DNA of 64,000 nt from positions 1,927 through 65,926 of the forward strand of contig JAQUKY010000006.1 in the NCBI GenBank assembly GCA_028718805.1. Reading direction: 5' to 3'. Under the pieces are notes generated by a model, which saw only the letters and a list, made by a program, of their open reading frames with translations, was not told where the DNA came from and searched no databases. Numbering within the stretch: position 1 is the first letter of the stretch; every line of letters begins with the position of its first letter. Below, one piece after another: positions 12,159-63,999 of the stretch. Origin of the DNA: Candidatus Nanoarchaeia archaeon. Lineage in GTDB: Archaea > Nanobdellota > Nanobdellia > Pacearchaeales > GW2011-AR1. A program made the translations under genes and the position numbers.

Positions 12159-12313
12159 GATTACGCAATCTCTTCAATTTTATATTCTCTTTTCTCAGTT
12201 TGGTGGATAGTTTAAGCTTTGTTTGAGTAGCTTAAAATTATAAGTATTACTAAGGAGATTCTTTTGAAGATATGAATATTATTAATTAAAAAATAAAAAA
12301 ATTAAAACAAGAC

Positions 12314-19635: not shown

Positions 19636-19837
19636 AATTTAATTAGCTTTTTAGAAGTTATAAATTTATCTTTTATACTTCAGTAATTTGATAAACCATT
19701 TTAAAATATGATTTAGAAGATTAAGATTTTTGGGTTTTGGGTGATTATTATCCTAATATTATCCCTTGTACCTATACTTTTCTGTATATAATTCACACTA
19801 TAGAAAAGTATTTAAATGAAATCTATTTTTCTTAGGC

Positions 19838-21391: not shown

Positions 21392-21557
21392 TTTCGATTC
21401 TGGTAATATTAAGATTATTATTTCTATAATATGCAAAACTTAAGAGAGCTCGGAAATTCAAGCTTAATCTTCTTAAGGAGAGCTTAAAATCGTTTGTGAG
21501 ATTAATGATAAGAAATATCCCAAAGGAAATGTTTATAAATTGCAAAGGATTTTTTAA

Positions 21558-34433: not shown

Positions 34434-34554
34434 AATGGGAAATAAACCAATAATAAATAAAAAACGATATAAGATATGGCAATTGAGACTAGGTCATTGA
34501 TGATTGCTTCATATTAAAATCGTTCAATAAATTACTGATAAAGAACACAAAAAT

Positions 34555-39052: not shown

Positions 39053-39169
39053 TTTGTCACAGCAAGGTGGTCAGATGATTTTATATATAATCCAGAACTA
39101 AGATAATCAACTGAAATAAAAAAAGTTCTGGATTATACCAAGATGGTAGCAAGTCCTGGCGGGGCTATT
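39053..39169 (+). repeat. Shared cassette right-end module, copy 1 (includes core copy 3 at 39157-39168)
   Basis: 113/117 identical to 60910-61026; internal perfect 14-bp inverted repeat at 39086-39099 / 39124-39137. Confidence 0.93.
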
Positions 39170-39227
39170 ATTGAAAAGTAGTGTGCTCTTAATCGTGGTT
39201 TAATAGCAAGCCACAATAAGAAAGAGC

Positions 39228-43919: not shown

Positions 43920-44789
43920 ATGGTGAATGAATTATTTTTAGCAGAGAACTGGTTTTTGATTATCTTAGGATTAATTTGGGTTATTGGGGCAGTTCTCCAA
44001 GATATGAAGAGGAGGGAAGTTGATAACTTATGGAATTTTAGCTTAATTGCTTTTGCACTTGCTTACAGAATTGCTGTCTCTATTTTTATTAATAATTATT
44101 GGTTTGCTTTTAATGGTTTAATTGGATTGTTAATATTTTTGGCTTTAGGCAATCTATTCTATTATGCAAGATTATTTGCAGGGGGAGATGCCAAGCTTAT
44201 GATTGCTTTAGGAACAATCCTTCCTCTAAGTTATTCGTGGATTATTAATTTTAAAATTTTTGGATGTTTTATTTTATTGTTTTTGTTAGGAGGAAGCATT
44301 TATGCTTTGATATACTCTTTTTGTCTGATAATAATTAATTGGAAGAGTTTTAAAAAGGAATTTGTAAAACAATGGAATAATTATAAAAGATTGTTTTTGA
44401 TAGCATTAATTTTTGCTTTAGCCTGGGTTTTAATTGCTTTTTTTATTAGTCAGACAATTATGGTTTTAATTGGATTAATTGTTTTATTATTCCCTGTTTT
44501 GTATATTTTTGCAAAAGCTGTTGAAGAAAGCTGTATGATAAGATTAGTTAAGCCAAACAAGGTTACAGAGGGGGATTGGCTGTATAAAGATATTAGAATT
44601 GGAAACAGATTAATAAAAGCAAATTGGGAGGGTGTTACTAAAAGAGAATTAGAATTAATAAAAAAAGGCAATAAAAAAGTTTTGATTAAATATGGAATAC
44701 CATTCACCCCAAGCTTTTTATTTGGGTTGGTTGGTTTGTTGTTTTTAGCTTGGATGTGGTTCTTTATTCTAAATTTAATCTTTTGGTAA
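43920..44789 (+). CDS. Prepilin peptidase (A24, PibD/ArlK/EppA-like)
   Basis: QDMKRREVDN and GGDAKL catalytic Asp motifs; C-terminal EGDW...EG...PFTP domain. Confidence 0.88.
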   Translation: MVNELFLAENWFLIILGLIWVIGAVLQDMKRREVDNLWNFSLIAFALAYRIAVSIFINNYWFAFNGLIGLLIFLALGNLFYYARLFAGGDAKLMIALGTILPLSYSWIINFKIFGCFILLFLLGGSIYALIYSFCLIIINWKSFKKEFVKQWNNYKRLFLIALIFALAWVLIAFFISQTIMVLIGLIVLLFPVLYIFAKAVEESCMIRLVKPNKVTEGDWLYKDIRIGNRLIKANWEGVTKRELELIKKGNKKVLIKYGIPFTPSFLFGLVGLLFLAWMWFFILNLIFW

Positions 44790-44805
44790 TCTGATAAACG
44801 ATTTT
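44781..44805 (+). repeat. Dispersed intergenic repeat family, representative copy
   Basis: TTTTGGTAATCTGATAAACGATTTT identical to 61272-61296; related copies at 8171, 19682, 23283, 47933, 51274, 55397, 56855, 61758 (+) and 21481, 32012, 34514 (-). Confidence 0.75.
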
Positions 44806-44868
44806 AGCACTTCCTTTTATTTAACTCGAAGATTATAGGATTATTAGTGAGATAAAAATTTTTATCCT

Positions 44869-47917: not shown

Positions 47918-48052
47918 TTGTTTTTTTGTTTTAGTAATCTCATAAACGATTTAAGCTTTATTTAATATTTCAGCAGCTATAATTTGATTTTTTCTATTTT
48001 TAATTTAGAATATTCATTATCACTAATTATAGATTAATTCCTGATGATTATT

Positions 48053-55362: not shown

Positions 55363-55491
55363 TAATACCCTTTCTCATTAATTTCTAATTTATCTCAGTA
55401 ATTTATTAAACGATTTTAAGCTTTGCAGACGAGCAGATTTTGTTGGGGGTATTATCCATTTAGAATTATTAATATCCATTTGAACTGATTC

Positions 55492-56823
55492 TTACACCTT
55501 TATCACTTCAAACTCCAGTTTTCTTTGGATTAACTCTATGAATTTATCTTCGTCATCTTTTTTTATTGTGCAGCCTGCAGCATTGTGATGCCCGCCTGAT
55601 TTCCCACCTATTGTTTTGATTATCGAATCTATTATTTCTTTTAAATTTCTATTTGATCTTGTTCTTCTTCCTGCTATTCTTGTTGATACTTTTATTTTAT
55701 CACCGTTGTATGCCATTGCTACAATTACTGTTCCTTGCTTGTATATTGATGAAAATGAGAGGATGCTTGCAAGGGTTCCTATTAATGTATCTTTGATATT
55801 ATCTTTTGCGTTTATTATTACATATTCTCTGCCTTCTATTTTGTCATTTTGGTCAATAAACCTCAGGCCAGAAATTATATGCTGCCTGTATTTCAAATAG
55901 ATTCTTTCTGCTTTTTTTCTTGCATACGGATTTCCCATGCAGAACAAGAATGCTATCTGCGGGAAACCCATCCTGCTGCAGGCATTTATTATAGCTGACA
56001 ATTCCCTTGCATCTTCAATTTTGTTGAAGAATTTGACAAGATAAAGATTCCCTATGCATTCTGTAGCATCTTCCTGAGAAAGTCTAAGCAAAAAAACGGT
56101 AGTTAATCTTTTCATTTCTTCATCATTTAGATCTATCAAGGACTTGTAACATTTTCCGATTTTTTCAATTCCTGCTTCTTCTAGAAGACTTATCGCGCCT
56201 AGGTAGTTCCCCGTTGCTCCGGGTATAAAAGGTCTTGAGCTAAATTCAATTATTTTATCTAGGGGTCTTGTTGAAGGATAGAGCAAAAGCCCCTTTTTTA
56301 CTTTTACAGTGGACTCTTTTATTATTATGTCTCTTGTTTTATTTATTTCTTTTTCCATTGTGTCTCCTACCATACCTATAATTGCCAGATAAGCAAGAGA
56401 GGCATTTTCTTTTGAAATCTCCCTTGATATAAGATATACAAGTTCTGAAGTGCATAATTCCTCATAATTCTTTAATAAATGGGGGTTGATTATATTCATA
56501 TTCTCTGGGACTTCTGTTATTTCTATTTCGTGATGATCAACTACAAAAATATTAGTTTTTAATTTGGATAAGTTTTCTATGTTGTTTGAACCTAAATCTA
56601 ATAAAAGGATTGTTCTATCTTCTGGGAATAAATTGATTTCTTCTTCATTAAGTTGCTTGATAATCTTGATTGAGAATTGCTTGTTTAACTTCCTTAAGGT
56701 TTTCGAAAAAATTGCTGCAGAAGTAATTCCGTCTGTGTCATAATGACTGATCAGGTGTATTTTTTTGTCATCAATTTTTCTTAAAAATTCTTTTGTAAAT
56801 CTTTCCACTTCTTTTAGTATCAT
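55492..56823 (-). CDS. RecJ-like DHH/DHHA1 phosphoesterase
   Basis: HYDTDG, LLDLG, VVDHH, GGHHNAAG; next to rps15 as is common in archaea. Confidence 0.85.
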   Translation of the reverse strand: MILKEVERFTKEFLRKIDDKKIHLISHYDTDGITSAAIFSKTLRKLNKQFSIKIIKQLNEEEINLFPEDRTILLLDLGSNNIENLSKLKTNIFVVDHHEIEITEVPENMNIINPHLLKNYEELCTSELVYLISREISKENASLAYLAIIGMVGDTMEKEINKTRDIIIKESTVKVKKGLLLYPSTRPLDKIIEFSSRPFIPGATGNYLGAISLLEEAGIEKIGKCYKSLIDLNDEEMKRLTTVFLLRLSQEDATECIGNLYLVKFFNKIEDARELSAIINACSRMGFPQIAFLFCMGNPYARKKAERIYLKYRQHIISGLRFIDQNDKIEGREYVIINAKDNIKDTLIGTLASILSFSSIYKQGTVIVAMAYNGDKIKVSTRIAGRRTRSNRNLKEIIDSIIKTIGGKSGGHHNAAGCTIKKDDEDKFIELIQRKLEFEVIKV

Positions 56824-56950
56824 CTTCAGTCTCTTTTTGTCACTAATCTTTTTTAGTAATATAATAAACGATTTTGAGTTATGTTTGAGCAGCTTAACCC
56901 TCTCAATATCCCTTTAATTCGTTTTGTTTATTATCAATATAAGGGGCTAT

Positions 56951-60909: not shown

Positions 60910-61026
60910 TTTGTCACAGCAAGGTGGTCGGATGATTTTATATATAACTCAGAACTGAGATAATCAACTGAAATAAAAAAAGTTCTGGATTATACCAAGA
61001 TGGTAGCAAGTCCTGGCGGGGCTATT
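60910..61026 (+). repeat. Shared cassette right-end module, copy 2 (includes core copy 6)
   Basis: 113/117 identical to 39053-39169. Confidence 0.93.
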
Positions 61027-61027
61027 T

Positions 61028-61738
61028 TTAATGTTTCTTATATCTACCTCTTGATTCAACTTTTTCTAATTGTTTGAGGATTTTATCTTTATCTTTGCTG
61101 TTGTAGCCCTTAATTATATGTTCAAAAAGAGATTTCCAATATAAAAAATGTTTTGCTTCCAAGGCTTGTCTTATTAAATGCAGATCAACTGCTTTGTCCT
61201 CGATTCTTTTTGAATGGAATCCTAGTCCGAAATCTATAAAATAGATTTTGAAATTTTTGTCTGATATTTTATTTTGGTAATCTGATAAACGATTTTTAAG
61301 TTTGTTTTGAGTAGCATAAGCTGTTTTAGAATTATTGATATCGGTTTTATTTTTTGAGTCTTCTTCTACATAGATCATATTAGAAGTTGTTAAGTCCCCG
61401 TGGATTATGTCTGAATCATGAAGTTTTGCTATTTCCTGGCCTATTTGCTCTGCAATTTGGTTTTTATTTTCTAAATTATCTAGGTAATCTGAGAGTTTTT
61501 TCCCTTCGATAGGCTCCATTATTATTTTATTATCTTTTGTCTCAATTACTTTTGGTACATTTACTAGCTTAGAAACTTTTTCAAGAATTTTTGCTTCTGA
61601 TTTTGTTCTTTTTTTCCTTAGGTTTTCATCTAGAACAGGGATTCTGTAGGATTTTTTTGTTCTATCCTTTATTATTTGATTACCTTTTAATGAGATGATT
61701 GCTTCTGCGCCTTGTGCGATGATTTTTTGTTTTTGCAT
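61028..61738 (-). CDS. bud32: KEOPS kinase Bud32, with long loop insertion
   Basis: QGAEA, RTKSEAKIL, HGDLTTSNM, DFG, EDKAVDL. Confidence 0.93.
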   Translation of the reverse strand: MQKQKIIAQGAEAIISLKGNQIIKDRTKKSYRIPVLDENLRKKRTKSEAKILEKVSKLVNVPKVIETKDNKIIMEPIEGKKLSDYLDNLENKNQIAEQIGQEIAKLHDSDIIHGDLTTSNMIYVEEDSKNKTDINNSKTAYATQNKLKNRLSDYQNKISDKNFKIYFIDFGLGFHSKRIEDKAVDLHLIRQALEAKHFLYWKSLFEHIIKGYNSKDKDKILKQLEKVESRGRYKKH

Positions 61739-61777
61739 TTTAATTTTGGATATTATCAGTAATCTCTAACTCATAAA

Positions 61778-61809
61778 CGCTTTGGCTTCTGTTCTCATAG
61801 CGTTTTAGT
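61778..61809 (+). repeat. 32-bp intergenic repeat (hairpin subfamily)
   Basis: 30/32 identical to 23211-23242; here within AAACGCT-N17-AGCGTTT. Confidence 0.8.
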
Positions 61810-61861
61810 GTTGCTTATTAATGATTTAGTCTATTTTTCTATTAATTTGCTCCTTATCATA

Positions 61862-62718: not shown

Positions 62719-63999
62719 TTATATCCTCATCTTCTTGCCAAACTTCTTGGCAAGTTTCATCATTTGCTTCTGGCTTAAACCCTGAGAGGGATCGAAATCT
62801 GAAATTTCCCCTCCCTGTGTCATTTCTTTTAATAATTTGTATTGCTTAAGAAGCTGACGGATGTCACTTGTGCTTGTTCCGCTTCCTTTTGCAATTCTTC
62901 CAAGGCGGGTTGTTTGTTTTTCCAGGATTTCTGGATTATTAATTTCTTCTTCTGTCATGCTGTTTATAGCATGCTGCCATTTTTTCATTTTATCTTCCTG
63001 GGTTCCTAGAAGATTATCTGGGATTTTTGCTTTTCCCAAGCCAGGAATCATTTCTGCAATCTTGGATAATGAGCCCATTCCTGACATTGATTTTAATTGC
63101 TCTTGCAAATCTCTAAGGTTAAATGAGCCCTTTTCTAATTTTTCCTTTAGTTTTTTCTGGGATTTTTCATCTGTTGCAGACTGTACTTTTTCTAATAAAC
63201 CTTCTAAATCCCCAAGCCCTAAAAGTCTTGATATAAATGATTTAGGATTAAAACTTTCAAAGTCATTCATTTTTTCTCCTGTCCCTATAAAGTAAACCGG
63301 AGCCTTTGTTTCATTGCAGGCAGTTAAAGCTCCTCCTGCTTTTGCAGTAGAGTCCATTCTTGTTATTATAACTCCATTAATATCTGCTGCTTTTTGAAAT
63401 TCAGAAGCCTGGGTTTTCGCAGCCTGGCCAATATCTGCCTGAATTGTTAATAACTTATAATCAGGCTTAATTGTTTTTGTCAAAGTTTTAATTTCAGAAA
63501 CTAGTTCTTTATCTAAGGAATGCCTTCCTGCTGTGTCAATTATTATTAAATCAAAATTGTCTAATTCTGGTTTGTATTCATTATAGATTCTAATTGGGTT
63601 TTTTTCTGTTTTATTTGTAAATACCTGGATTTTTGTTTGTTCACCTAATTGTTCCAGCTGGTCTGTGGCTGCTGGGCGATGAACATCTAAGCCTAACATT
63701 GCAACTTTAAATCCTCTTTTCTGGTAATAAAGAGATAGCTTTGCTATTGTGGTCGTTTTTCCTGCCCCATACAATCCAATAAGCATTATTTTTGTCTGCT
63801 TGTCTTTTTGCACTGAGAGCTCATGCTTTTCATTTCCCAGAAGATTTAGGATTTCGTCATGAAGCAACTTGATTAGGTGCTCTTTTCTTTCAACTCCTTT
63901 AATTTTCTCATCTTCAGCTGCTTTTTTTATCCTGTCACCTAATTCTTTTACAAGATGAATATTAACATCTGCCTGAATCAATGCTCTTTGCAGGTCTTT
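62719..63999 (-). CDS. srp54: Signal recognition particle protein SRP54 (5'-partial)
   Basis: LIQADVN, GLYGAGKTTT, DTAGR, TRMD..AKAGG, M-domain RIAKGSG. Confidence 0.96.
   Translation of the reverse strand, partial: KDLQRALIQADVNIHLVKELGDRIKKAAEDEKIKGVERKEHLIKLLHDEILNLLGNEKHELSVQKDKQTKIMLIGLYGAGKTTTIAKLSLYYQKRGFKVAMLGLDVHRPAATDQLEQLGEQTKIQVFTNKTEKNPIRIYNEYKPELDNFDLIIIDTAGRHSLDKELVSEIKTLTKTIKPDYKLLTIQADIGQAAKTQASEFQKAADINGVIITRMDSTAKAGGALTACNETKAPVYFIGTGEKMNDFESFNPKSFISRLLGLGDLEGLLEKVQSATDEKSQKKLKEKLEKGSFNLRDLQEQLKSMSGMGSLSKIAEMIPGLGKAKIPDNLLGTQEDKMKKWQHAINSMTEEEINNPEILEKQTTRLGRIAKGSGTSTSDIRQLLKQYKLLKEMTQGGEISDFDPSQGLSQKQMMKLAKKFGKKMRI

Follow-up and report, generated by a model that had tools for sequence, protein, structure and literature searches.

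The Bud32 gene and its neighbourhood

The window, by which we mean the whole stretch of 64,000 nucleotides analysed here, comes from a genome of 1.18 Mb (18 contigs, 31.8% G+C), and its genes were called with a simple heuristic based on open reading frames (ORFs). Judged by the names that its homologues bear, the genome belongs to the Pacearchaeota/Nanoarchaeota within the DPANN archaea. One of them encodes Bud32, the kinase/ATPase of the KEOPS complex (Table 1). The protein scores 185.1 bits against the NCBIfam profile TIGR03724 (arch_bud32), which has a curated cut-off of 125, and the match falls into two stretches, residues 10 to 126 and the C-lobe, with an insert between them. The catalytic loop HGDLTTSN, the DFG motif, and the basic C-terminal tail SRGRYKKH (R-G-R-Y-K) are intact and are invariant in the homologue alignment. 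The relatives found in the PDB (8UNK_B, 2VWB, and 3EN9, all KEOPS kinases of Methanocaldococcus) and human TP53RK also align to the protein in two pieces. Bud32 of M. jannaschii (2VWB/3EN9/8UNK) and TP53RK have the same family, catalytic residues, and C-terminal tail as the protein described here, but the turn is made up of 3 residues in M. jannaschii (NFIFDKD-LYIIDFG) and of about 40 here (NMIYVEEDSKNKTDINNSKTAYATQNKLKNRLSDYQNKISDKNFKIYFIDFG).

The gene order SRP54-Bud32-tRNA-rpS15-DHH is conserved in relatives, and a tRNA-Gln is the sole match in an Rfam search of the whole window. In the Pacearchaeote L043 (GCA_053535155.1), a convergent tRNA lies directly after Bud32. The Bud32 stop codon in the window is adjoined by a direct repeat of 120 nt, the two copies of which (60910-61029 and 39053-39172) are 96% identical and terminate in TGGCGGGGCTAT, a sequence similar to the 3' end of a tRNA. 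In a repeat module upstream of the gene (61740-61830), the hairpin AAACGCT-N17-AGCGTTT precedes GTTTATGAG..ATTACTGATAA; the latter resembles a degenerate 3' half of the repeat called motif A below and is found 20 nt ahead of the Bud32 ATG. The SRP54 gene beside Bud32 contains a LAGLIDADG intein in relatives (L043:4503-7643, L050:1608-4745, and L082:1499-4642) that is lacking from SRP54 in the window (62719-63981).

Table 1. Bud32, its expanded turn, and copies of the two repeat elements. Positions without a prefix are those of the window; the others carry the name of their contig or locus.
Feature	Position	Strand	Basis or remark
Bud32 (KEOPS kinase/ATPase) coding sequence	61028..61738	-	236 aa; ORF and TIGR03724 profile
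Expanded β-hairpin turn, residues 124-163	61250..61369	-	Alignments and AlphaFold2 model
Segment of 81 nt (27 codons) missing from the close genome representative G011 (YVEDKTNKNNFKVYF)	61262..61342	-	Codon-level comparison, L001 vs L006
Full-length sense-strand motif A (AGCTTA..CTCAAACAAAGCTTAAAATCGTTTAnnAnATTACnAAAA), read as (T)AYATQNKLKNRLSDYQN	61268..61322	-	nhmmer and model R1
Intergenic motif A copy before DHH-family gene (55492-56823)	56848..56897	-	25-nt core at 56851-56875, 27 nt upstream of gene start
Partial motif A copy (3' half) with identical 25-mer, facing a gene end	44779..44806	-	Model positions 25-52
Intergenic motif A copy	47926..47965	-	Family model match
Intergenic motif A copy	55390..55439	-	Family model match
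Intergenic motif A copy	19676..19725	-	Family model match
Intergenic motif A copy	21461..21510	+	Family model match
Intergenic motif A copy, about 15-20 nt ahead of ATG (34555/34561)	34510..34543	+	Family model match
Copies of hairpin E2	L044:10451-10523, L044:4251-4362, L084:1369-1407, L085:1880-1918, L047:535-573
Intergenic copies of E2 in the source genome	C5:54304-54375, C11:6420-6500		Upstream of unrelated genes

An expanded turn between the catalytic loop and DFG

The insert adds about 35 residues to the tip of a β-hairpin between the catalytic loop and DFG. A sequence-only reading of this DNA had counted 42 residues between SNMI and IYFIDFG, which is the exact number, while most orthologues have a turn of 3 to 5 residues there, e.g., NMIL-KNN-KVYLIDFG. 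Compared with the Bud32 gene of G011, to which it is 73 to 79% identical, the gene in the window has an extra segment, and it is this segment that contains motif A. As that reading had also proposed, the reverse complement of the repeat encodes TAYATQNKLKNRLSDYQNK, and it does so in the frame of Bud32; the insert is presumably translated as part of the kinase.

A single-chain AlphaFold2 model of Bud32, built from 23 sequences, contains a confident kinase core with pLDDT values of 80 to 97 in the C-lobe. Residues 129 to 159 have values of only 30 to 38 (i.e., <50) and are flanked by confident strands at residues 121 to 125 and 163 to 167, so that the model places the insert where a surface loop had been suspected, at the tip of the hairpin. 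Orthologues with and without an insert are otherwise 88 to 94% identical in their cores. The predicted picture is that of a disordered surface loop, rich in Lys, Asn, and Ser, that would be tolerated by the kinase fold.

The motif copy in Bud32 has no RNA structure by the measures used: its minimum free energy is -7 kcal/mol (z +0.71), and 154 of 200 shuffled sequences fold equally well. This lack of a fold speaks against both a bulge-helix-bulge intron and a palindromic element, and inverted repeats are found neither in the Bud32 copy nor in the family model of motif A. The flanks of the insert are A-rich (AAAAATAAAAC / CAAAATAAAAT), and their complexity is too low for a target-site duplication to be called. 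No terminal inverted repeats and no clear target-site duplication were found, and transposition is thus a candidate mechanism only.

Motif A is a dispersed, gene-proximal repeat

Motif A is 50 to 54 nt long, reads AGCTTAATCTnCTCA..CAAAGCTTAAAATCGTTTAATAGATTACTAAAA in promoter orientation, and is the commonest intergenic repeat of the genome. With an iterated nhmmer profile, 125 copies pass the threshold of E <= 0.01, while the shuffled genome yields none; a sequence-only covariance model from which the Bud32 copy had been left out recovers at least 139. Judged by the ORF-based gene set, all but three of the 125 copies are intergenic, with 92 of these 122 oriented toward a gene start and 30 toward a gene end. 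About half of the 92 start-facing copies have an ATG 5 to 40 nt past the end of the motif (median 39). It is because of this placement before gene starts that we call motif A a promoter-type, gene-proximal cassette. The copies show little palindromic pairing, as just 3 back-to-back pairs are found among 174 matches.

Generic genes of this genome have TATA boxes (of the TTTATAAA type) that peak very sharply near -27 from the ATG, which suggests that most mRNAs are leaderless. The TATA-like TTTA(A/T)nA(G/A) of motif A is more loosely placed than the generic box at -27. Judged by position, motif A probably provides the BRE/TATA sequence at a third to half of its copies. An upstream 10-mer, AAGAGTTCTG(A), is enriched as well, occurring in 24 to 27 upstream regions genome-wide.

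The source genome is by far the richest in motif A; some genomes of the same genus contain 3 to 14 weaker matches, and other genera have essentially none. No copy is present in the 198 kb sampled from the close representative G011. The copy that precedes SRP54 here has a counterpart at the orthologous position in L043. We had considered a family private to the species, given that an exact 19-nt pattern gave 35 matches here and 0 in 40 relatives, but the pattern was too strict; the profile search and the L043 contig show diverged motif A in some relatives, and this reading was therefore dropped. In L043, three tandem copies spaced about 110 nt apart (L043:10053-10326) precede the DHH-family gene, and the orthologous spacer in the window (56824-56950) contains a single copy.

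The copy inside Bud32

The Bud32 copy belongs to this family. It is found by nhmmer with an E value of 5.7e-8, and against model R1, which was built without it, it scores 42.6 bits (E 8e-11) over model positions 1 to 54. This puts it at about rank 31 of at least 139 copies, on par with ordinary intergenic ones. Relative to the consensus, it has an extra A in CAAAAC and in AAAAAT and has lost a G, with the frame preserved. Two of its three sense frames are open and none of the antisense frames is. The 5' half is closest to the copy at C7:63619 (86% over 52 nt), and the 25-mer is identical to two different copies.

Several claims of the sequence-only reading bear on this relationship. The reported identity of the 25-mer at 61272-61296 with 44781-44805 is complete, and a third exact copy lies on contig C2; three exact occurrences in the genome, with 0 expected from shuffles, argue against a unique or chance match. 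The copy at 44781 had been described as intergenic, and it is indeed a member of the family, but it amounts to a 3' half only, points toward a gene end, and has an overlap of 9 nt with the end of an ORF. The continuation of the 25-mer, TAAGTTTGTTTTGAGTAGCATAAG, had been likened to copies at 12211 and 56876; this holds at the level of the family (5 mismatches in 24 at 12213 and 7 in 24 at 56875), not as near-identity, and the continuation has no close ungapped twin.

Bud32 is the only coding sequence that contains the repeat. A genome-wide search with nhmmer relaxed to E <= 50 gave no other convincing copy within a coding sequence, contrary to the expectation of a repeat spread through many genes. 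Two further ORF matches of the first pass were rejected, one as a start-codon artefact and the other because its ORF is a shadow ORF of 84 codons. One or more sense frames are open in about half of the full-length copies, and stop codons alone thus cannot account for there being a single in-gene copy.

When the gene is compared with its orthologue in L041, the best-conserved 36-nt window of the entire gene is the 3' half of the motif, with 35 of 36 positions identical. This window lies in the most variable part of a protein whose gene is 77% identical overall and 60% identical at third positions. Other 36-nt windows reach 33/36, so the excess is modest.

Inserts in related Bud32 proteins

Bud32 was found in 39 of 40 related genomes, and in most of these the query aligns as two abutting pieces with residues ~125 to 160 skipped. 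The suspicion that the loop is an addition to the fold was thereby borne out: orthologues mostly have the short turn in place of a large loop, which makes the loop dispensable. A wider search of 5.8 billion proteins shows that about half of the 120 best homologues have inserts of 20 to 85 residues at the same site, and 70 of 147 homologues have a loop of 9 to 14 residues. The inserts of about 75 homologues are all in frame, multiples of three, and stop-free, and their borders vary between lineages.

A peptide pattern, NSKK.QAT.QNK[LA]KN.L.DNKIS.NNFK, is common to the source protein and to P0002 (recovered in two different runs), P0018, P0053, P0062, P0083, P0112, and P0100. At the DNA level, the inserts of L041, L043, and L081-L083 are collinear with that of the source gene. 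Jointly they restore the motif A consensus, as several keep AACAAAGCT where the source genome has AACAAACT. Taken one by one, the inserts are decayed, at 0 to 14 bits (about 0 to 4 bits for L043 and L081-L083), and L041 has kept only the 3' half of the motif. The shared peptide and the collinear DNA indicate that one cassette was captured in the ancestor of a sub-clade and has since been evolving as coding sequence. A fresh insertion private to the source species was rejected, as decayed homologous inserts are present in Bud32 of other Pacearchaeota. The inserts of L002, L003, L004, L005, and L012 gave no match to motif A.

Presence of the insert is very patchy on a Bud32 tree made without the loop, where it requires about 38 gains or losses, a rough sign of patchiness, given that this quick tree is based on a protein of 200 residues and leaves many forks open. 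Pairs of homologues whose cores are 88 to 94% identical differ by a whole insert. For one such comparison within a single metagenome, P0043 and P0106, the flanking DNA is about 93 to 95% identical and is more diverged right beside the indel, a pattern better explained by loss of the loop, or by its exchange between strains through recombination, than by fresh insertion. Two Bud32 alleles from JGI sample 3300069939, L047 and L048, are 94% identical in protein, the one with a 43-residue insert and the other with none. Their contigs end at the same upstream point, which resembles a strain-level assembly bubble, and divergence is raised beside the indel.

A second element in the same loop

The Bud32 loop is a recurrent site for intergenic elements, of which there are at least two kinds at the level of the clade. 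Two exact matches, a 17-19-mer (GCGAGCAAGAGGAGCTT) and a 21-mer (CAGCCGAGCGAAGCGAGGCTG, translated as AERSEA), link the insert of L044 (P0004) to a single intergenic element of its own contig, at which Rfam gives no match. At the left end of this second element, E2, stems of 6 to 9 bp form a hairpin around an 11-nt loop, GAGCA(A/T)GAGGA, that is invariant. Another hairpin, which is GC-rich (CAGCCGAGCGAAGCGAGGCTG), often comes after it. There are 1 to 2 intergenic copies of E2 per genome, upstream of unrelated genes, and copies are also present in the Bud32 inserts of several Pacearchaeota; Bud32 of the source window has none. The bare 11-mer GAGCAAGAGGA was tried as a marker of E2 and rejected, as it occurs 1 to 5 times in most relatives, mainly in ordinary coding sequence, and only stem-flanked copies represent E2.

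Ten copies of E2 from six genomes or contigs were compared, half of them in Bud32 genes and half intergenic. In the alignment, 91% of cells are paired, and compensatory changes are seen in 6 of the 7 stem pairs. The score for covariation is 0.78 versus 0.20 in shuffles, a value reached by none of 500, and it collapses when the partners are slid against each other. Two close relatives with collinear DNA, P0005 and P0012, read E2 in different frames (AEQASKRSLCS vs EAIEQEEIAKE), with indels of 22 nt and 2 nt that shift and then restore the frame, and two of their E2 stem pairs differ by double, compensatory changes. Covariation across two reading frames means that a coding loop can be under constraint at the level of the nucleic acid, and selection on the protein is hard to invoke for compensatory changes between collinear orthologues read in different frames.

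Origin and maintenance of the insert

The insert in Bud32 is probably the result of an old in-frame capture, or 'exonisation', of an intergenic promoter-type cassette at a permissive surface loop, in which it has been largely a passenger. An ancestor of one sub-clade within the Pacearchaeota would have captured a single motif A cassette in sense orientation and in a stop-free frame, either through a transposition-like insertion or through illegitimate recombination or repair. The cassette would since have been translated as a disordered loop that is readily lost, swapped, or extended, leaving relatives that range from no insert to 85 extra residues and that include a second captured element, hairpin E2. 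The loop itself may be neutral. Two observations sit uneasily with this account. The source copy is near the consensus while the orthologous inserts of L043 and L081-L083 have decayed, so simple neutral drift since a shared insertion is insufficient, and the conservation of the motif 3' half relative to L041 (35/36) is also left unaccounted for.

The near-consensus state of the source copy is addressed by two rival accounts, which are not exclusive of one another. Concerted evolution, in which gene conversion or re-insertion from intergenic copies recently replaced an insert that was old and decayed, is plausible but unlikely. The source genome offers at least 139 potential donors, the copy looks like a mosaic of a 25-mer identical to two other copies and a 5' half nearest to C7:63619, and L041 retains the motif 3' half only. 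However, the GCTACT sub-variant of the 5' half is common to L043 and the source, which suggests vertical descent, and the frame-preserving differences from the consensus (CAAAAC, AAAAAT, and the lost G) are mirrored in the ATQNK.KN peptide of other lineages. It is rather unlikely that the DNA is instead of dual use, with the cassette held in Bud32 by selection on the nucleic acid, as an internal sense promoter or factor-binding site, and the protein merely tolerating it. Such selection would suit a near-consensus copy among decayed orthologous ones, an island of conservation in the most variable segment of the protein, and the E2 element, which keeps its invariant loop and compensatory stems across two frames in the same loop of sister lineages. 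Yet none of the frames of the coding strand offers an ATG in the roughly 170 nt that follow the motif, and what comes next is an integrated cassette and a tRNA, both convergent, leaving nothing obvious to drive. In addition, the L043 genome keeps the motif A family while its Bud32 copy has decayed, and the 35/36 window stands only modestly above others at 33/36 in a segment where the peptide is partly conserved too. A broader version, which we consider unlikely, would make the Bud32 hairpin loop of Pacearchaeota a dual-use 'docking bay' under DNA or RNA selection, occupied by a promoter cassette here and by E2 with its GAGCAAGAGGA loop in sisters. Elements at such a site could act as an internal promoter, as a factor-binding site, or as an mRNA hairpin tuning the t6A gene or its neighbours.

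Two further accounts were considered. The insert is present in one allele and absent from another that is 94% identical, a superficial likeness to mobile intervening sequences, and it might be removed from the mature protein as a bulge-helix-bulge intron, a mini-intein, or by translational bypass. This is very improbable given the lack of secondary structure, borders that differ by lineage, and inserts that are all stop-free multiples of three; for an intein, the inserts of 27 to 60 residues, which lack intein motifs, are also too small, and the 27 to 40 residues of the source insert contain no Cys/Ser/Thr ... HN blocks. That an Asn/Lys-rich loop in a genome of 32% G+C should resemble an AT-rich repeat by chance, or that the insert is an artefact of assembly, is hardly credible: shuffles give 0 matches, the E value of 8e-11 comes from an independent model, and homologous inserts occur in independent assemblies, including P0002 with its recovery from two runs.

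Comparison with known repeats

Dispersed repeats captured in frame are a well-known peculiarity of Rickettsia, and our literature search found no description of such capture in archaea. Rickettsia palindromic elements (RPEs) insert in frame in conserved genes (reviewed in PMC10969869); they are palindromic, about 100 to 150 bp long, and occupy dozens of unrelated genes per genome. The sequence-only reading had proposed an archaeal analogue of these elements, and this survives in so far as a dispersed repeat lies in frame in a dispensable loop of a core protein; the repeat is not palindromic, occupies one gene, and is not a fresh arrival. As with RPEs, a dispersed non-coding repeat sits in an essential conserved gene, is in frame and stop-free, is tolerated by the fold, and has homologues that persist in relatives. 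Unlike RPEs, the Bud32 element is an oriented promoter-type cassette of 50 to 54 nt without a fold, is the one coding copy among at least 139, belongs to an archaeal host, and shows no terminal repeats or clear target duplication.

Motif A shares with Correia/ERIC/REP-type repeats and MITEs a short length, high copy number, gene-proximal position, sub-families, some tandems, and likely promoter content, but its family model has no inverted-repeat architecture, and it has no link to a transposase. It also differs from MITEs and other small repeats in that orthologous copies are stable between species, which leaves recent mobility unsupported. Eukaryotic exonisation, e.g., of Alu, offers a likeness in the fate of the sequence, as a non-coding repeat becomes a translated segment at a permissive position and then drifts. 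The event here differs from Alu exonisation in that the repeat entered the reading frame of a prokaryotic gene directly, with no splicing involved.

Significance

The Bud32 insert represents a promoter-type cassette that an ultra-small symbiotic archaeon (DPANN) has captured in an enzyme of tRNA modification that is both universal and essential. For annotators and phylogeneticists, the case is a warning that marker proteins of DPANN can contain inserts, long and variable, that derive from repeats and recombine between strains. Together with E2, the loop provides a natural experiment on how non-coding DNA becomes protein and on what the fold of a core kinase tolerates, and also on whether regulatory or structural nucleic-acid signals can persist within coding sequence.
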